The notes: generated from the sequence alone by a model not told the origin. Counted from the first letter of the stretch, positions 12,769 through 40,223 are shown. The stretch: 64,000 bases of DNA from a virus (IMGVR_UViG_3300005841_000939), one strand, 5' to 3'. Numbers and translations: made by a program.

Positions 12769-13091
12769 TAAACGTGTTCACTAACAAAACCACCATATTT
12801 AGTCAATTCATGTTGAACAACTAATTTACCAAAAGATTCCCTAACCCTAACATTACCAGTTATGCATGTCGCTATTCCAGAGCCATTTCCGAATTTATAT
12901 TTCGGAAGTCTTTTCATCACATCGTTTAAATGTTCAACTTTTGCATCTTCCCAACGAGTAGAATTAAGAATGTCATTATCAACAGGAATTGAGGTTTCAT
13001 ACTTTGTGCCAATTTCAATTTGCACAATCACTTTCTTAAAAAGACCTAGTCTTTTTACATTAAATCTAAAATTTCCTGTCAAATATTCCAT
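12708..13091 (-). CDS. hypothetical protein with an internal duplication
   Basis: two TG..R....Q.E....W.D units. Confidence 0.55.
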   Translation of the reverse strand: MEYLTGNFRFNVKRLGLFKKVIVQIEIGTKYETSIPVDNDILNSTRWEDAKVEHLNDVMKRLPKYKFGNGSGIATCITGNVRVRESFGKLVVQHELTKYGGFVSEHVYWWKDTTISTISQIFLGTTL

Positions 13092-14314
13092 CAGCGAATA
13101 TCAATCCTAAATAACGATTTTTTACCATGACGAATAACAATGCTATTTTTCACAATATCGTTATCAGTCACAATGTATGTCATATCATTGATTTTTACAT
13201 CGTTGACAGAAATTGAATTTTCCTTGATCATTCTCTGACCTTCTGAATTTGATTGGGCAATTCCAATCTCTCTCAGTAACATTTTTAATTGTATACCAGT
13301 TTTAATGTCTTCAATTGAAATTACCTTACTTGGAATATTTTCTCCAGTCACATCTCCTGATTTTTTAAATCCTGATTTAATATCATACATTGTCCGACGG
13401 GCAGTAGGTTCACTGCGAACCATTGAGGTTACATCATATGCCAAAATTTCTTTAGCATGATTGATGTCAGTAGAAACCATTTCACTAATTTCTTTCAAAG
13501 GACGCATCGTTAAAAAACGTAGAAGTTTTTCAACATCTTTATCTGGCACATTGCGCCAGAATTGGAAGAAATCAAAATTAGAAGTCAGTTTTTCATCCAA
13601 CCAAATGTTTCCAGTTTCACTTTTTCCAAACTTCTTTCCATTTGATTGAGTAAGCAATGGAAATGTCAATCCGTATGTACGTTGAGAAAACTTTTTACGA
13701 ATCAAATCAATTCCCATAATGATATTACCCCATTGATCTTGACCACCTATTTGAATCGTACAACCATGCATAAAATTCAAATAATAAAAATCATATGCTT
13801 GCATCAACATATAATTGAATTCAAGTGCAGTCAAACCTGTACTCAGACGACTTTTAACTGAATCCATACTAAGCATATGAGCAACACTGAAATGCGGCCC
13901 AATAATTCGTAACATATCAACCCATGGAACTTTATTAAGCCATCCACTATTATTTAAGAAAAAATGATAATATGGATTTTCAACATCATAACAATCGCGC
14001 AATTGTCTTTCAATGAGTTGCGCATTCGTATCAACCTCCTCAACAGTAAGCATCTTTCTAGATTCTGATTTTCCAGAAGGATCACCAATTAAGGCAGTTG
14101 CTCCACCAATAAGAGAAATAGTCCTATGATTGCATTTTTGTAACCATTTCATACACATGATAGGAACAAGACTACCAACATGCAAACTGGATGCAGTAGG
14201 ATCAAATCCACAATATGCAGTAATTTGTTTATTAACTTCAAAATATTCTCGTAAATTATCATCAGTGGTCTGAAAAATCAAACCACGTTCAGCCATAATA
14301 TCATAAAAATTCAT
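13091..14314 (-). CDS. tyrS: tyrosyl-tRNA synthetase
   Basis: YCGFDPTASSLHVGS (HIGH-like), EFNYMLMQAYDF, QIGGQDQWGNI, KFGKS (KMSKS-like), C-terminal S4 domain. Confidence 0.95.
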   Translation of the reverse strand: MNFYDIMAERGLIFQTTDDNLREYFEVNKQITAYCGFDPTASSLHVGSLVPIMCMKWLQKCNHRTISLIGGATALIGDPSGKSESRKMLTVEEVDTNAQLIERQLRDCYDVENPYYHFFLNNSGWLNKVPWVDMLRIIGPHFSVAHMLSMDSVKSRLSTGLTALEFNYMLMQAYDFYYLNFMHGCTIQIGGQDQWGNIIMGIDLIRKKFSQRTYGLTFPLLTQSNGKKFGKSETGNIWLDEKLTSNFDFFQFWRNVPDKDVEKLLRFLTMRPLKEISEMVSTDINHAKEILAYDVTSMVRSEPTARRTMYDIKSGFKKSGDVTGENIPSKVISIEDIKTGIQLKMLLREIGIAQSNSEGQRMIKENSISVNDVKINDMTYIVTDNDIVKNSIVIRHGKKSLFRIDIR

Positions 14315-20550: not shown

Positions 20551-21906
20551 TTATTTATACTTTTTTTCTTTAAAATGTTCTATCAGACGATCAGGCGTAA
20601 TTTCATACTTATAATCTTGTAAAAAACGACCATGTTGAATGTCATGAGCCAATGATGCAAAAATCTTTGAAAAATCTTTGTATGGAACTGGAACTTTCAT
20701 ATCCGTGAACGCTTTAATTAAGCTATCACCTGAAACTCTCAATATCCATGTATGAGCATAGGTGTCATTCAAATGAAATAATGGCTTATCGAAAATATCA
20801 ATTATTTCTTTATTTGCTTGATGCACATGCAAGCACAAATCAACATACTCTGAAATTGATTCTTGAACTTTTCTAGCGGAACTATGTACTCGCTCCATGT
20901 TCTCTTTTGATTTGTCGTAAAAATAAATGTGCAAGCATTGGTGGCAATGCATTAACGCCTTCCATTCATTCTTATCAGTTATTTTTGTAAAATCTCCACC
21001 ATTGAAGAATAATGCTGGCAACCATACTTTTTCCATTGAAGGAAATTCAGAATCGTCATCATCCTTATTGATGATGATCGGCTTGAAATCATCACCAAAC
21101 AATTCTTTGTCAATTCCATGATCCTTCATGCAATTGACGAATGTGTTATAGTCGCCAGACACACATCCTTTATAAAATTCGGCTTCAAATCTTTCTTTAC
21201 TAATGTTATGCAGTAAAGGAGCATTCCTCTTCATTGCTTGTGAAGTTTTAGGATCAATCTTCAACTTATACCGAGCAACAAATTGCAACGCCCTCAAAAT
21301 TCTTAGAGGATCTTCTGCAAAACGATCATCTGCATTACCAACAGCTTTTAAAATCTTTTTCTTGCCATCGTTCTCTGCTGTTTTATTTGGAGCAATGATA
21401 CGTTGAGGCTGTGCAATTTCAATTGCAAATGCATTGATGGTAAAATCTCTACGCTGCAAATCTTTTTCAATTGGAATTGAAGGATCTACTGACACGACAT
21501 TTCTATCAGTGTCAAAACGAGGAATACTAATCTGACATTCTTTTGTCAAGAAATTATTAATCATCAAAATACCAAACGATTTACCAACCTCATCAATCTT
21601 TAAATTAAAAGTTGCAATCTCTTTTATTATTTCTGTAATTTTTTCATATGCCAATCCAGCCACACAAAAATCATAATCAATTTTCTTCGTTGAATTATAA
21701 TAGTAATATGGTTGATTTTTTGATAATCCTAGGATATAATCCCGAACCATACCACCAACAAAATACAGAGTGCCACCAGCAGCCTGAACAGCAGCACCCA
21801 ACAACAAGATTCGTTCATAATCTCCGATATTAGGAACGAATGACAAGTGAGGATGTCTGTTTGATTTAAGGGCGTCAAAAATCTGGAGATATGGTTGCTG
21901 GGTCAT
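20551..21906 (-). CDS. cca: CCA-adding enzyme / poly(A) polymerase family nucleotidyltransferase
   Basis: FVGGMVRD, DYDF, DLQRRDFTINAFA, RFAEDPLRILRALQF. Confidence 0.88.
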   Translation of the reverse strand: MTQQPYLQIFDALKSNRHPHLSFVPNIGDYERILLLGAAVQAAGGTLYFVGGMVRDYILGLSKNQPYYYYNSTKKIDYDFCVAGLAYEKITEIIKEIATFNLKIDEVGKSFGILMINNFLTKECQISIPRFDTDRNVVSVDPSIPIEKDLQRRDFTINAFAIEIAQPQRIIAPNKTAENDGKKKILKAVGNADDRFAEDPLRILRALQFVARYKLKIDPKTSQAMKRNAPLLHNISKERFEAEFYKGCVSGDYNTFVNCMKDHGIDKELFGDDFKPIIINKDDDDSEFPSMEKVWLPALFFNGGDFTKITDKNEWKALMHCHQCLHIYFYDKSKENMERVHSSARKVQESISEYVDLCLHVHQANKEIIDIFDKPLFHLNDTYAHTWILRVSGDSLIKAFTDMKVPVPYKDFSKIFASLAHDIQHGRFLQDYKYEITPDRLIEHFKEKKYK

Positions 21907-21969: not shown

Positions 21970-23661
21970 TTAGGACTTCTTCTTGATGGCCTTCTTGACA
22001 CCAGCCTTCGCAGCATCAACCACTGGACTTGTTTCCAGGGTAATAGTGTCAATCAACTTCACGAAGTCACCACCATTGTATGTTCCATTGGCGAACAGGT
22101 CAATAACAGTGAAGCAATCATCCGAGAAACCACCGATGTACAATACATCAGTTCCAGTCTTCACTTGTTGTGAAGTGTTAGGAGTCACGTCAATTGAAAC
22201 GAAACGTGCCTTAGGATTGCGACTCTTGAACTTCAACCATTCCGCGTGAGCCGAAGTGCCGTAGTCATTTGACATGTCGCGCCATGATTCATTGTCAGAA
22301 ACCATGATGATCAAGTCACCCTTGGCATTATCACGGTTCAACTTGCGGATTGGCGCACTGCATGAGGTTCCACCTGATGGCAAATGGGCGATGACATTTG
22401 AATTTGATACAACTGAATCACGAGGATTCAAGCGGCATGGAACAACATCATCACTGAAACAGATTACCTCTGCATCTGGATTCTTGCGCAAAACAGCCGA
22501 AGCCACCAATGCAGCAACATCGCGACAAGACACCTTTGAAGAAGTATTGCCACGGTTTCCAGTCACAGGAGAACCCATTGAACCTGACACGTCAACGCAT
22601 ACATACACCTTACCTGCGAAGGTTGGAATATTCTCGGTTGAGATTTCCAATGCGTCTTGCAACGCATTAGTGATTTGCGAAGGAATTCCTTCCTCAACAT
22701 TCTTGTATGCTGCCAAGAGTTGGTAAGGGAATACCTTACTCTTCTCAATTGATGCGCGATCACGGAGCTTATCCGAAACAGTGCCAATCATCTTGGAATC
22801 GTTGAAAACTCCTTGACGCAAGAAAGTATTCAAGTTCATGCGAGTTGCATGCCAAGGAGCATTCTTCGCAATTGCAGTCCACTCGGGTGTTCCGAGATTC
22901 AATGCAGTCAGAAGACGGAATTCCACATCAGGAATTTCTGAAATGTTGGCCTTACCAGAAAGAACAGAAGTCTTGAACTTCTCGTACTTTTGCACAGTTT
23001 CAGGAAGTTCTGACAAAAGGACAGTGGTTGCACGCCCGTGCTTGTCATTAACCATATCACTCTTGCGAGTAACAACCTTCTTGCCGATGAGATATGCGAA
23101 CAATGCAGCTTGCACACTATCACGAGGAGCAGGGTGAGCCATCTTGATCACGTCAGCAATTGATGGATCATTACCAACTGAATCCTTGAAGAGGGAATCA
23201 TCACGACGGGTCTTGAACCATGCATTGATGAGCTTCTTCACACTGGTACCGAAAGACTTACGTCCAACCTTACCAGAACGGATGATTTGACAGAAGTTAC
23301 GCAACATCTTACCGTTGTCGATAACTTGAGGGAACACTACCTTCAAAACACTCACATCCTTAGATGCGAGAATTGCACATAGAAGTGCAGGAGTGTCCTT
23401 CATGAAAGAGTGCTTGCGTGCGTAGATTGCAGTACGACCGATGAAAGTCGCAGGAACCTTGTTGCAGAGCGAGATGATTTCTGCAAGTTGATCACCAGCA
23501 GAAGTATAGAAGGTATTTCCCAAAGTACCAACGATGGCCATTTGCGCCAGCTTTTCGCGGTCGCCGAGGTCATACGCAGCCCCGCCAGCGTGGTTTACCA
23601 CAGTGGCAACGGGAGACTTGGACTTAGGAGTTGAGGAACCGAAGAGATTCTTATTAGCCAT
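21970..23661 (-). CDS. rsr: Ro60/TROVE-domain RNA-binding protein (Rsr) with C-terminal vWA domain
   Basis: NHAGGAAY, GTLGNTFY, MKDTPALL, NGKMLRNF, RMNLNT, VFPYQLLAAY, VDVSGSM, SDNESW; start placed at the ATG at 23661 (563 aa). Confidence 0.92.
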   Translation of the reverse strand: MANKNLFGSSTPKSKSPVATVVNHAGGAAYDLGDREKLAQMAIVGTLGNTFYTSAGDQLAEIISLCNKVPATFIGRTAIYARKHSFMKDTPALLCAILASKDVSVLKVVFPQVIDNGKMLRNFCQIIRSGKVGRKSFGTSVKKLINAWFKTRRDDSLFKDSVGNDPSIADVIKMAHPAPRDSVQAALFAYLIGKKVVTRKSDMVNDKHGRATTVLLSELPETVQKYEKFKTSVLSGKANISEIPDVEFRLLTALNLGTPEWTAIAKNAPWHATRMNLNTFLRQGVFNDSKMIGTVSDKLRDRASIEKSKVFPYQLLAAYKNVEEGIPSQITNALQDALEISTENIPTFAGKVYVCVDVSGSMGSPVTGNRGNTSSKVSCRDVAALVASAVLRKNPDAEVICFSDDVVPCRLNPRDSVVSNSNVIAHLPSGGTSCSAPIRKLNRDNAKGDLIIMVSDNESWRDMSNDYGTSAHAEWLKFKSRNPKARFVSIDVTPNTSQQVKTGTDVLYIGGFSDDCFTVIDLFANGTYNGGDFVKLIDTITLETSPVVDAAKAGVKKAIKKKS

Positions 23662-23763
23662 GATGCATTTTCCTTTCAGGAAACAATTGGTTGGCGAGTT
23701 AGTATAGAGATAAATTTTAAAGTGACAAGTGTTAATTGTCACCAAAGAATATACCTATTATAC

Positions 23764-32543: not shown

Positions 32544-32618
32544 TGGCGTCCCATAAAGGATTTGAACCTTTTCTCTCAGTTTAGAAGACTGATTTGCTTC
32601 CAATTACAACAACGGGAC
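32544..32618 (-). tRNA. tRNA-Arg(TCT)
   Basis: TCAGT-CTTCTAA-ACTGA arm, encoded CCA. Confidence 0.87.
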
Positions 32619-32626
32619 AAGAAAAA

Positions 32627-33048
32627 ACATATGGTGTGCTATGCTGGGCCAAAGTCTATTGAGGTATATTCTTGAGAAGTCGGGCATACAACCTTTTGCT
32701 TATCAATTGCAACGCCCTCAAACCCACCGTTCCGTAAGATACTTGATGGGCAATTCTCATGTCGTCTGTTATATCAACTTACACAAGCTTTATTGGGTCG
32801 GAAATCATGCATTGCTGCAATCAAAAACCCCTTGCTCCCTGTAACTGCTTGCGCAATTTATGGGTTCTTTCGATGTAAGCCAATATCGTCAACTCTATCC
32901 TAGGGTTATAAGTCTGGACTGTTGCTATGCACTCCCTGATTGCTATTCAGTTCGCTGTGCTGCCAGAAACTCTTGAACCGTTTGCGCGACAGTTCTTCCC
33001 TTCGACACTCCTTAGATGATGCCTTGTTAAAGGCCACATCCCATATGC
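32627..33048 (-). ncRNA. large structured ncRNA (~420 nt), GOLLD/ROOL-class-like, family not verified
   Basis: terminal helix GCATATGG/CCATATGT, GCAA-tetraloop hairpins, further helices, no credible ORF on the array strand, flanked by tRNAs. Confidence 0.62.
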
Positions 33049-33052
33049 AAAT

Positions 33053-33127
33053 TGGTTCCCCGTCTGAGAATTGAACTCAGGTCTCCAGCGTCACAAGCCG
33101 ATATACTGCCATTGTACGAACGAGGGA
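33053..33127 (-). tRNA. tRNA-His(GTG), atypical acceptor stem
   Basis: TCGGC-TTGTGAC-GCTGG arm; A73, no G-1. Confidence 0.75.
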
Positions 33128-33207
33128 ATAACAAAACCGATTTTTTCCATAGCTCGGTAAACACTATGTTCCTTAGACGAGAACACGTTCATAGAAATTT
33201 CAAATAT

Positions 33208-33282
33208 TGGTTCCCCATCCGAGAATCGAACTCGGGTCTCCGGTGCCACAAACCAGCGTACTAACCACTGTACGAATGAGAG
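33208..33282 (-). tRNA. tRNA-His(GTG) second copy, atypical acceptor stem
   Basis: CTGGT-TTGTGGC-ACCGG arm; A73, no G-1. Confidence 0.75.
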
Positions 33283-33283
33283 A

Positions 33284-33595
33284 ATGAGAAAGACATTTTA
33301 TAATATTGCAATGCTTCGTTTAAAAACATTACGTGATGGACATACTTGTGTATTTTGTGGCCTAACATCTAAGCTAGGTAACAAGTCATGCCGAAATCTC
33401 ATAGAGATTCATCATATTATTGAACGTCAAGATGGCGGATCTAACGAAAGTTCAAATTTAATTCCATGCTGTTCCAATCACCATTCGCTTATCCATTCAG
33501 GAAGCATCAACGTTGATCGTTGGTACAAATCCACAAAAGGATGGCTATTGCGATGGACAGATGAAACTGGTGTTGAACACTATTCACCAGAATAA
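33284..33595 (+). CDS. HNH endonuclease, antisense to the array
   Basis: CVFCG...IEIHHII...GGSN..SNLIPCCSNHHSLIH. Confidence 0.82.
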   Translation: MRKTFYNIAMLRLKTLRDGHTCVFCGLTSKLGNKSCRNLIEIHHIIERQDGGSNESSNLIPCCSNHHSLIHSGSINVDRWYKSTKGWLLRWTDETGVEHYSPE

Positions 33596-33599
33596 AAAA

Positions 33600-33945
33600 T
33601 TGTTTGAATGGTGTGTTATTACACCAAAGAACCGGTTTTCTTTACTCTTAATCAAACACGAATTATAAAAAGACACATTGAAAAAGTAATGTATTGTCTC
33701 TTTATAAAAGGAGAATAACTCCAAAGTTTCGTTCTTAAACATGTAGCTGACTCCGGTCAAAGAGTAGGATTATGAATCCTTGCGCGGTTTGTTCAGAAGA
33801 GGTTGCTAGCTAATCCCTTCGTCGTCATACTTTATTTACCTTTTTTATCAGGACCATATGACAATCATCGGGCAAGCACCTTGCTATTCAGCGAATTCAC
33901 TCTTTAAAAGATGGCTACTTCTAAGCCGACTTCCCATTCAAACAA
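33600..33945 (-). ncRNA. 23S rRNA GTPase-associated-centre (H42-H44) mimic RNA with a large insert
   Basis: 12-bp terminal inverted repeat; GGAAGTCGGCTTAGAAGTAGCCATCTTTTAAAGAG at the 5' end and TTCTTTGGTGTAATAACACAC at the 3' end. Confidence 0.72.
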
Positions 33946-33951
33946 AAAGAA

Positions 33952-34108
33952 TTTCACGACAAAAGTGCCAAAGTAGACTCCTTGCGGATTAGCTGTGTCT
34001 ATCATTTCCACCATACTCCCAATTGGTGGGAGCACCGGGATTTAAACCACGGATGTACCTAAGTACGGCTACGGTTATATAATGTAAACTTTAACTGCAT
34101 TCGTGAAA
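33952..34108 (-). ncRNA. Y RNA-like (YrlA-type) with permuted class II tRNA module
   Basis: TTTCACGA/TCGTGAAA stem, GAATGC, TACAT; variable arm, T arm, closed acceptor TGCTCCC-ACCAATT-GGGAGTA, D arm. Confidence 0.75.
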
Positions 34109-34110
34109 AG

Positions 34111-34185
34111 TGGTGCGTCGTCTTGGAATCGAACCAAGTCCCGAGGATTAAAAGTCCCCTGCTCCACCATTTGAGCTTACAACGC
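34111..34185 (-). tRNA. tRNA-Lys(TTT)
   Basis: GGGGA-CTTTTAA-TCCTC arm, encoded CCA. Confidence 0.9.
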
Positions 34186-34189
34186 GTGT

Positions 34190-34501
34190 TTATTTCTTTG
34201 GTAAATTGCCAGTTATGAAAAATTTAAGACGTTGAAAAAAGCCCATATGAACTATTTCTTCATATGACATCAACATACTTTCCATACATGAATCTTTTAA
34301 CTTATTACTTTCTTCAATCTTTTTATTTTCTTCAATCAGTCTTTTATTTTCGGATTGAAGTGAAACATAATGCTTTTGTTGATATTCGATCAAACCAGCA
34401 TGAAATGCAGTTCCGCCAACCAAAATAAATTCACGAAGTGGAATTGATTGAGGCATTGAGTCTTGCATCTGTTGCGCAGCTTTTTCTAAATCTTTAGTCA
34501 T
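34190..34501 (-). CDS. hypothetical protein
   Basis: 103-aa ORF inside the array. Confidence 0.5.
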   Translation of the reverse strand: MTKDLEKAAQQMQDSMPQSIPLREFILVGGTAFHAGLIEYQQKHYVSLQSENKRLIEENKKIEESNKLKDSCMESMLMSYEEIVHMGFFQRLKFFITGNLPKK

Positions 34502-37393: not shown

Positions 37394-37603
37394 TTAAAAA
37401 TCTTTCTCTTCAAGCAAATTTGTGCAACGACCTTCTGCAACTGCTCTATTTATGTCATCAAATTCTTTTTTGATTTCATCAAGCAATGCTTTCTTTTCTT
37501 CTTCTGATATATCAGAAGAATTTAACCTTTCTTCGGTTTTCTCATCCAAATGAATGCAACTTGAAATCATTCCTTCTGATAACCATTCCTGTGGAACTAT
37601 CAT
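37394..37603 (-). CDS. small hypothetical protein
   Basis: 69-aa ORF, ATGA coupling. Confidence 0.5.
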   Translation of the reverse strand: MIVPQEWLSEGMISSCIHLDEKTEERLNSSDISEEEKKALLDEIKKEFDDINRAVAEGRCTNLLEEKDF

Positions 37604-38205
37604 TTGTCTTCTTTCTCTAAAAGGTTGTTAAAAATGATTTTGCAAATGGCCTTGCCACGACGGTCAATATGCTTCCACTTGATCTTAAAAGAATCCGAAT
37701 CAATACCACCAAACATATTGGCATTTGAATGGATTTCAGCAAGACCTGCAATTAGAAGTGTTATTGCTTCTTTGCGTTTGCAAAATTCTTCAATTTGTTC
37801 TGCTTTGAGACGATGAATATCCATATCCAACCTAATGAGATTGGCAATTTGTTCATCACCTCCATGATCTAACCAAATTTGTGCAGAAATTTCCGCATGA
37901 TTTGGAAAATGAATGCGACCTTCGCTATCAGTTTCCTGACAGAATGGTTTGCCGCAATCATGAAAAAGGGCATACTCAAGAATTGTTTCGGTGTCTAACA
38001 GATTCCCTAAAATCTGTGACTTGTATAATTGAAACCATTCAGGGAGTCGCCAATTTGGCAACACCTATGTTTCACCTTTTATAAACTGAATCAACTCTTG
38101 AAGATGATTCTTGACTGATTCTCCGTGTTGGAGAATCGTTTGATGTTGATTTTGATTACAACCCTTCATCTTTTCGATGAGGATCTACTGAAAGTCCTGC
38201 TTCAT
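37600..38205 (-). CDS. HD-like phosphohydrolase interrupted by two in-frame TAG codons (readthrough gene or pseudogene)
   Basis: AAGGA RBS + ATG at 38205; TAG at 38185-38187 and 38065-38067; TILQHG...FHDCGKP...HFPNHA; ends at TGA. Confidence 0.6.
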
Positions 38206-38380: not shown

Positions 38381-38689
38381 TCATTTCAATCTTTCTGATT
38401 TTTGAATTGCGAGTTGTTTTGACGATTTAATTTTATTATACAAGTCATCAGGATGGAAATTTGGTTCCCATTCTTTCCCTTGTGTAATATGAAATTTTTC
38501 TGCCATCATGTGATGGGTTGGGCAAAGAGAAATACCATTCTCTTTGACATAGCCACCGTTTGGCATTTCATTTCGATCAGTTATGTGATGCGCATCAAGA
38601 TTTTCTTTAATGTCACAAAACAAACATTTGCCACCGTCTCGCTTGAAGACTGCGTTGCGAAATGCTGAACGAATTTCCTTCTTGTTCAT
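38381..38689 (-). CDS. HNH endonuclease
   Basis: VFKRDGGKCLFC...LDAHHI...NGISLCPTHH. Confidence 0.82.
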   Translation of the reverse strand: MNKKEIRSAFRNAVFKRDGGKCLFCDIKENLDAHHITDRNEMPNGGYVKENGISLCPTHHMMAEKFHITQGKEWEPNFHPDDLYNKIKSSKQLAIQKSERLK

Positions 38690-40146: not shown

Positions 40147-40223
40147 AGGCCCGACTGTCAAGATTTGAACTTGAATTTTCCAGCCATGACGGCCGGACGT
40201 TCTTTGCATTGAACTACAATCAG
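40147..40223 (-). ncRNA. tRNA-like RNA with a 9-nt anticodon loop (CCGTCATGG), paralogue of 40057-40131
   Basis: same D and T arm sequences, covarying acceptor stem; ends GCCT. Confidence 0.55.

Follow-up and report, generated by a model that had tools for sequence, protein, structure and literature searches.

A family of phage RNAs resembling the GTPase-associated center of 23S rRNA, with a member in the tRNA array of a 262.5-kb rhizosphere phage

In bacterial ribosomes, the GTPase-associated center (GAC) is formed by helices H42–H44 of 23S rRNA (nucleotides 1051–1108 in E. coli), and the protein that recognizes this fold, uL11, is needed for the activation of RelA. In the real GAC, C1072 pairs with C1092 and is hydrogen bonded to G1099, G1071 pairs with G1091, and a single base pair, which is C-G in H. 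marismortui, closes the U1082–A1086 mini-hairpin, whilst the uL10/bL12 stalk is built on the extended H42 with its Kt-42 (PMC2952862). That RNAs outside the ribosome may mimic rRNA sites is a principle established for the mRNA leaders of ribosomal-protein genes (PMC10931766). Such leaders, including the L10(L12)4 site of the rplJ leader and the uL1 site of the L11 operon, are loose mimics that reside in 5′ UTRs and act in cis. Other RNAs that invite comparison are the Y RNAs, the partners of Ro60, which mimic tRNA through their tRNA-like domains, and ROOL and GOLLD, which are large structured phage RNAs of obscure function that are often found beside phage tRNAs. Finally, phage PhiTE reportedly produces a pseudo-ToxI RNA that imitates a host RNA and neutralizes a host system, in that case by copying an antitoxin repeat that belongs to a single defence system.

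The locus considered here lies in a 64,000-nt stretch of viral DNA (IMGVR_UViG_3300005841_000939; "the window"), which is part of a 262.5-kb virus record that is 97% complete and derives from rhizosphere metagenomes. Among the sequencing runs listed as containing the stretch, there was no RNA run. The features of the element and its immediate surroundings are as follows.

34111..34185, minus strand: upstream tRNA-Lys(UUU) (ARAGORN, Rfam)
33600..33945, minus strand: whole GAC-like RNA, copy 1 (346 nt), both halves of which are matched by covariance model R1
33934..33945, minus strand: 5′ strand of the H42-like closing helix, TTGTTTGAATGG (RNA UUGUUUGAAUGG), its last G being the equivalent of G1055
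33900..33933, minus strand: 5′ core, GGAAGTCGGCTTAGAAGTAGCCATCTTTTAAAGAG
33908..33933, minus strand: H43 copy (G1056–U1081) with the 1067 loop GGCUUAGAAGUAGCC; A1067 equivalent at 33922 and U1072 at 33917
33903..33907, minus strand: mini-hairpin U1082-U-A-A-A1086, a single-pair hairpin as in rRNA
33899..33902, minus strand: GAGU (G1087-A1088-G1089-U1090), the final core nucleotides 5′ of the insert
33629..33898, minus strand: variable insert (Px domain), 270 nt, with a base helix of GAAUU (33898–33894) and GGUUC (33633–33629)
33625..33628, minus strand: UUUG linker from the insert to H44
33611..33631, minus strand: 3′ core, TTCTTTGGTGTAATAACACAC
33612..33624, minus strand: H44 copy (G1091–A1103), GUGUAAUAACACA; A1095 equivalent at 33620 and U1092:A1099 at 33623/33616
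33600..33611, minus strand: 3′ strand of the closing helix, CCATTCAAACAA (RNA CCAUUCAAACAA), beginning with the equivalent of C1104
33208..33282, minus strand: next downstream tRNA-His(GUG) (ARAGORN, Rfam)
32628..33049, minus strand: GAC-like RNA, copy 2 (~422 nt), between tRNA-His and tRNA-Arg

A first-pass annotation, made from the sequence alone, had placed a 12-bp inverted repeat at 33600–33611/33934–33945 of the minus strand, quoted the 5′ and 3′ core strings, and estimated the insert at ~270 nt; all three are present as described, the insert measuring 270 nt (33898–33629), and the 23S 1051–1108 string that it had given is exactly that of E. coli rrlB, which is our 23S reference. The two terminal strands are a perfect 12-bp complement, and from 5′ to 3′ the RNA thus runs from the 12-bp terminal helix through GAAGUCGGCUUAGAAGUAGCCAUCUUUUAAAGAGU, the 270-nt insert and UUUG to GUGUAAUAACACA. 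Motif anchoring independently gave the same bounds (33600..33945). Between positions 1055 and 1104, 41 of the 50 core bases are identical to E. coli 23S, and seven of the nine differences fall into coordinated sets (1058/1080, 1072/1092/1099 and 1090/1101). The H43 copy is identical to E. coli at 1062–1071 and 1073–1079, as is the GUAAUA loop of H44, and both GAC loops are therefore kept, as had been claimed. At the 1072/1092/1099 triple, the window element has U1072, U1092 and A1099. Covariance model R1, which was built from nine short elements, all of them from other phages, matches the window at 33841–33945 (44 bits, E 7e-10) and 33600–33728 (23 bits), and in E. coli 23S rRNA it matches the GAC site only (40.8 bits). 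The match of 33945–33600 to the GAC is beyond chance. The secondary structure is that of the GAC, with H43 and its 1067 loop and H44 and its 1095 loop closed by an H42-like helix, and sequence and covariation point to the same tertiary contacts, namely the 1082:1086 pair and the 1072/(1092:1099) and 1071/(1091:1100) triples.

When set beside the bacterial GAC, the phage family retains the H43 and H44 loops, the U1060/U1078 mismatch, G1093/A1098, the 1082:1086 mini-hairpin, the 1071/1091:1100 and 1072/1092:1099 contacts and the G1056/A1103 junction. In contrast to its ribosomal counterpart, the phage RNA is free-standing, and its closing helix is a simple stem, arbitrary in sequence, that lacks Kt-42; the 5′ strand of its H44 is broken after U1090 by the variable domain and UUUG; U1090-A1101 replaces the A-U pair of E. 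coli; and the exposed loop bases vary. Nor does the locus resemble a genuine 23S gene or fragment, given that H44 is interrupted and no other rRNA was found in the window or the genome. The expectation that no further rRNA-like sequence would be found nearby was borne out by a scan of the window with Rfam 15, which reported only the 30 tRNAs at gathering score. Because the stem is a plain helix of 9–10 bp and the extended H42 with Kt-42 is absent, only the minimal 58-nt uL11 domain has been copied, and uL10, which had been put forward as one possible target, is consequently unlikely.

The other described systems differ from the phage RNA in what is copied and where. Like the ribosomal-protein leaders, it is an extra-ribosomal RNA that imitates an rRNA protein-binding site, but the leaders are loose copies, whereas the phage element is a near-exact one with a full tertiary fold that resides in tRNA arrays; neither a uL11 nor a bL12 gene that it could autoregulate was found in the genome, and its neighbors are tRNAs and an HNH gene on the opposite strand. 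As with Y RNAs, it would be a stable non-coding RNA imitating an RNA of translation, phage-borne near tRNAs, except that the molecule mimicked is rRNA rather than tRNA. The Y RNA partner, Ro60, is encoded by the phage in the window, yet is absent from four of five other carrier records, three of which are complete phage genomes. ROOL and GOLLD have no rRNA-like core, and the element has no Rfam match to either. The decoy principle attributed to pseudo-ToxI may apply here too, with the difference that the GAC-like RNA copies a universal ribosomal domain.

The first-pass annotation had considered that the element might correspond to an already catalogued motif. This was not substantiated, as there was no Rfam 15 match, and Rfam searches of 33200–34300 at E-values up to 10 gave nothing relevant, with no group I or II intron or LSU model reportable. 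Likewise, no description of a phage GAC mimic was found in full-text literature searches or in the large motif-discovery papers. The element therefore belongs to a phage RNA family for which we found no prior description, although one cannot be fully excluded, since many subscription journals are outside the coverage of such searches.

The first relatives were identified by blastn of the 5′ motif against GenBank phages, which returned Aeromonas phage 4_4572 and Ralstonia phage RSP15. The architecture, including an H44-like 3′ end, is shared by the two, and in neither is the element annotated. Exact-pattern scans of IMG/VR gave 23 loci with the 5′ motif and at least 120 with the 3′ motif, and both halves occur in order at at least 109 viral loci (H43-to-H44 distance 88–412 nt), which include at least 100 distinct elements. 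R1 recovers nearly all of these loci. Among bacterial and archaeal genome and MAG contigs, 33 of 120 matches to the 3′ motif are true members, with labels that include Clostridia, Bacteroidota, Neisseriaceae, Acidimicrobiales, Chloroflexota and others, and many of these are located in tRNA-dense, phage-like stretches. Cultured carriers found by blastn are GAP32, CBB, fHe-Yen9-03/04, XaC1, XacN1, pf16, UNO-G1W1 and ME3, to which the Lak megaphages can be added; the element is unannotated in all of these jumbo phage and Lak records. The family thus spans jumbo phages and megaphages of Proteobacteria, Bacteroidota, Firmicutes, Actinobacteria and others, and the window element has all of its features (closing helix, H43, GAGU, an insert on a base helix, UUUG, H44 and CACAC).

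Support for a common structure came from several measures of covariation. RNAalifold, applied to 39 short members, predicted four helices, namely the closing helix, the top of H43, the insert base and H44. In a 97-sequence R1 alignment, standard pairs occupy 94.3% of cells, compared to 67.9% in shuffles, and compensatory changes are found in 20 of the 24 pairs (shuffle mean, 15.5). The covariation score is 0.655 versus 0.154 for shuffled alignments, with none of 500 shuffles reaching it, and slid partners score 0.09–0.17. The first 9–10 pairs of the closing helix covary with all Watson-Crick types, and pairing decays beyond them. The per-position counts that follow refer to 100 distinct elements among the matches listed, in the anchored analysis. 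Positions 1058:1080 form a pair in 98/100 members, and each of the four Watson-Crick types is represented, whilst U1060/U1078, G1093/A1098 and R1056/A1103 stay non-canonical across the family, as they are in rRNA. The insert-base pairs P1–P3 are formed in 99, 100 and 90 of 100 members, respectively, by many pair types. GAGU is present in 100/100, a figure that is partly anchored by the search regular expression, and also in all 19 members found by the 5′ pattern alone; the UUUG linker occurs in 18 of the 19 found by that motif alone. RNAalifold predicts that the UG of the linker pairs with C1102/A1103, a pairing that is invariant and so has no covariation support.

Positions that take part in the tertiary fold also covary. 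The 1082:1086 pair is U-A in 66 members, C-G in 20 and A-U in 12, and hence is paired in 98/100. At 1092:1099, there are 72 C-G, 23 U-A and 5 U-G pairs (n=100), and nucleotide 1072 tracks this pair in 100/100, being C with every C:G (72/72) and U with every U:R (28/28). G1071, G1091 and C1100 are invariant. As the covariation of 1082:1086 and of the 1072 triple matches the contacts of the real GAC (PMC2952862), the family has, judged from these alignments, been selected to keep the GAC tertiary fold and not merely two hairpins. One detail of the first-pass annotation, an AAAGAG/TTCTTT helix from which the insert would hang, is contradicted by this covariation, which favors the 1082:1086 pair and a separate insert-base helix; the bases of the rejected AAAGAG/UUCUUU helix are those of the 1082–1086 hairpin, the insert-base helix and the linker. 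Its central proposal of a free-standing GAC mimic was upheld by the core identity, the size of the family and the covarying secondary and GAC-specific tertiary interactions.

In contrast to the fold-determining bases, which are nearly invariant across the 100 members, the exposed loops vary (A1067 is A in 83% and G in 15%; G1068, 77%; A1096, 82%; C at 1097, 55%). To our knowledge, nearly all bacterial 23S rRNAs have A at 1067, and neither U/U:A at 1072/1092:1099 nor C:G or A:U at 1082:1086 is a usual bacterial state. Set against this bacterial conservation, the variable loops and near-invariant fold bases would fit with recognition of the RNA through its fold.

All 30 tRNAs of the window (ARAGORN, Rfam) are on the same strand as the element. 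There is no ORF on that strand between the element and the next tRNA, and a scan around the element gave no promoter- or terminator-like sites that would set it apart from the array. A search of phage genomes for the element in tRNA clusters, which had been suggested at the outset, revealed the large family described above and the same co-orientation: tRNAs are found at 78 of 109 loci, every nearby tRNA is co-oriented with the element, and in approximately one quarter of cases a tRNA lies within 30 nt on either side. Such proximity and co-orientation suggests that the RNA is co-transcribed with the tRNAs and released by tRNA-processing enzymes. An HNH endonuclease gene (33284–33595, plus strand) ends 5 nt from the 3′ end of the element on the opposite strand, so the array transcript would run antisense to it. 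Within the array there are also a second small HNH gene (38381–38689, minus strand), an HD-domain protein gene (37600–38064, minus strand) and a tRNA with anticodon UCA (40148–40223, minus strand), which ARAGORN labels SeC and which may be of the opal-suppressor type.

Further away on the minus strand, the window encodes Ro60 (TROVE and Ro60 vWA domains; 21970–23745), a CCA-adding/poly(A)-polymerase-type nucleotidyltransferase (20551–21906) and TyrRS (13091–14314). The first two genes are adjacent in this phage, and the three constitute a set of translation and RNA-quality-control genes near tRNA arrays; Pnkp-Rnl and CCA-adding enzymes are similarly found near other family loci. Across 109 loci there is no conserved protein neighbor, the largest cluster being TerD (13/109), followed by smaller clusters of HNH/GIY-YIG, RNase H, Pnkp-Rnl, CCA-adding enzyme and P-type ATPase. 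Ro60/TROVE was considered as a universal partner and rejected, as it is present in only one of the five other carrier records checked. Searches of the 262-kb phage genome for uL11 (PF00298) and bL12 (PF00542) gave no match. With no conserved neighbor, no phage uL11 or bL12, and a patchy distribution of Ro60, any protein partner is most likely supplied by the host.

What might such an RNA do? We tentatively favor, with slightly less than even confidence, the idea that host uL11 binds it and that the resulting particle would stand in, as a decoy, for the L11 stalk base and factor-binding site. In such a scheme, the element would be a stable non-coding RNA, co-transcribed with the tRNA array and cut out of the array transcript by tRNA-processing nucleases. 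Its two ends would fold into the three-dimensional domain of 23S 1051–1108, the minimal uL11/thiostrepton-binding GAC, with the variable domain projecting from a single fixed site in H44. Host uL11, which recognizes this fold, could then bind the RNA, giving a complex that mimics the L11 stalk base away from the ribosome, and this RNA–uL11 particle would compete with ribosomes for ligands that dock at the factor-binding site. The likeliest payoff would be a blunted host response acting through that site, which might be achieved by two routes: uL11 could be drained, such that RelA-dependent stringent signalling fails, or the RNA could absorb a GAC-directed factor or enzyme.

Several observations argue for a uL11 decoy. 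The core is near-exact, the family is large, covariation extends to tertiary contacts, and the part of the ribosome copied is the domain for uL11 only. Conservation is at the level of the fold, with no conserved phage protein neighbor or uL11/bL12 gene, and the element is accompanied by co-oriented tRNAs and by genes for translation and RNA repair (TyrRS, CCA-adding-type enzyme, Ro60). Against it, cellular uL11 is mostly ribosome-bound, so titration would require high levels of the RNA; the insert breaks the 5′ strand of H44, which might interfere with uL11 binding; and the ~11% of members that carry a copy of the sarcin-ricin loop (SRL; see below) point to ligands that touch both elements, i.e., translational GTPases, and not to uL11 alone.

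Extended to the family, the proposal would be that large phages of many phyla make a free imitation of the factor-binding site, always including the GAC and sometimes the SRL, that acts with host uL11 to neutralize as yet unrecognized host responses, such as stringent signalling or immune toxins directed at the GAC or SRL. We regard this broader version as possible, but on the doubtful side. If true, these RNAs would constitute a type of viral counter-defence RNA not seen before, comparable to phage tRNA arrays except that the attack being countered is directed at rRNA. The family would be the first stand-alone RNA class found to reproduce a functional rRNA domain as far as its tertiary contacts. 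It offers a testable handle on how large phages control host translation or stress signalling, and may point to host defences directed at the ribosomal GTPase center.

One alternative is that a host enzyme attacking the factor-binding site is inhibited by the RNA or takes it as a decoy substrate. Such an enzyme might be an ADP-ribosyltransferase, a nuclease or a glycosidase that serves abortive infection or warfare between bacteria. With the toxin absorbed by the free RNA, the ribosomes would be spared, much as tRNA arrays and RNA repair are thought to counter tRNA-directed defences. There is precedent for a toxin of this kind, as Tre23 ADP-ribosylates H44 around 1095–1098 (PMC8661411). The elements are moreover found in tRNA arrays beside RNA-repair-type genes (Pnkp-Rnl, CCA-adding enzymes and Ro60), and a subset adds a copy of the SRL, the other classic toxin target. 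However, we know of no anti-phage system that targets the GAC, and the presumptive target bases are only loosely kept (A1067 is G in 15%, and 1096 and 1097 vary). In addition, a stoichiometric decoy would have to outcompete tens of thousands of ribosomes. Overall, we consider a toxin decoy to be unlikely.

It is also conceivable that the GAC fold is no more than a handle for stabilization or processing, possibly capped by uL11, which locks the 5′ and 3′ ends together, and that the insert is the functional cargo. Inserts are indeed extremely diverse. Their lengths span 41 to about 330 nt, and the point of entry is always the same permissive position between U1090 and the UUUG linker, where H44 is interrupted in its 5′ strand. 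Subfamilies with conserved modules of their own can be distinguished; in a comparison with the family inserts, that of the window had no similarity to any other. On the other hand, members with a minimal 41-nt hairpin as insert keep the full core, the window insert has no excess folding stability (z −0.86 relative to shuffles), and the only recognizable cargo is the SRL, a functional partner of the GAC. We therefore view a pure scaffold as quite improbable.

A third possibility is that the RNA, by reproducing the surface on which factors dock, binds or regulates translational GTPases (EF-G, EF-Tu, IF2, RF3, BipA, HflX or others of this kind) so as to sequester, protect or retune a host factor. 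Approximately 11 of 100 members, 385–429 nt long, carry an SRL-copy hairpin, AGUACGAGAGGA(A/G)N, whose flanking stems covary, and in this subfamily a single RNA thus combines both rRNA elements of the GTPase-binding site. EF-G and IF2 are reported to bind isolated rRNA-domain oligonucleotides, the isolated SRL RNA among them (PMC3496166 and works cited there). Yet most members have no SRL, and this includes the window's, as AGUACGAGAGGA gave no match at up to two mismatches in the window or up to one in the genome. Furthermore, a phage needs active elongation factors, and the factor-contacting positions A1067, 1096 and 1097 vary within the family. A GTPase binder accordingly seems to us very unlikely.

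The last alternative, of a functionless fragment of host 23S, an assembly chimera (the join with rRNA sequence that the first-pass annotation had named as a possible refutation) or rRNA exons around a self-splicing intron, could draw on the high rRNA identity and the adjoining HNH endonuclease gene, but it is hardly credible in the face of more than 130 independent members with compensatory changes, isosteric variants (U/U:A at 1072/1092:1099 in 23%; C:G or A:U at 1082:1086 in 32%), recovery of the same stretch from three separate rhizosphere metagenome runs, and inserts of 41 to about 330 nt with no intron or LSU model of Rfam reportable at E-values up to 10.

The inserts have further properties that deserve description. 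SRL-bearing members are L059 (5927–6353), L041, L050, L027, L067, L110, L138, L056, L093, L070 and L079, the last of which has two SRL-copy hairpins, and the related element of the Lak megaphages (H52–H66) has a copy of AGUACGAGAGGA too. In the window insert, there is a 9-nt match (33750–33758, minus strand) to GACCGGAGU, which flanks the SRL on its 3′ side (23S 2664–2672), and a 14-nt match (33724–33737, minus strand) to 23S 2756–2769; both have chance-level E-values, and together, being in rRNA order, they may be a coincidence or a decayed remnant. Eight members (L044, L130, L136, L090, L054, L120, L003 and L001) have in common a module, ACCCCG-(GAAA/UAAC/GAGA)-CGGUAAGG, in the 3′ part of the insert, which forms a hairpin with a GNRA/UMAC-type tetraloop and is followed by UAAGG. 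Another insert subfamily, comprising RSP15, GAP32, L004, L013 and L025, has CAGGGGAAGGACAAGU and GACCCUYAGAG in common. The insert of L060 (14197–14350) contains a second H44-like string, UAAUAGCUCAC, that is identical to 23S 1094–1104. A few members (L075, 1050–1182; L034, 811–982; L113, 1035–1216; L087, 937–1113) possess a second insertion site, with an extra hairpin between 1077 and 1078 of H43.

Copy 2 in the window is more divergent. It begins directly after a tRNA-His (33053–33126) and ends 9 nt before tRNA-Arg (32544–32618), and is matched by R1 at 32906–33052 (24.3 bits at full model length). By eye, it keeps the closing helix (CAUAUGG/CCAUAUG), the lower stem of H43, C1082:G1086, GAGU, UUUG, CACAC and the core junction, and its insert is ~340 nt. 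Both the 1067-type and the 1095-type loops are remodelled, to GCC-UUUAACAA-GGC and GC-CCAGCAUA-GC, respectively. Since neither canonical loop survives in copy 2, presentation of A1067 and A1095 cannot be a property of all copies, which counts against the uL11 decoy. A scan of viral contigs gave no second instance of the remodelled loops, the only matches being to unrelated coding sequence, and copy 2 may be either a decaying copy or one with a new role. With such a remodelled-loop paralogue, isosteric triples and two permissive insertion sites, the family represents a natural mutational survey of the GAC fold, which is useful for RNA structural biology and for the design of RNA scaffolds. More than one GAC-like copy is also found elsewhere, with two in L055 (3972–4089 and 4829–4946) and three within a few kb in L094 (2698–2896, 3885–4040 and 4758–5057).
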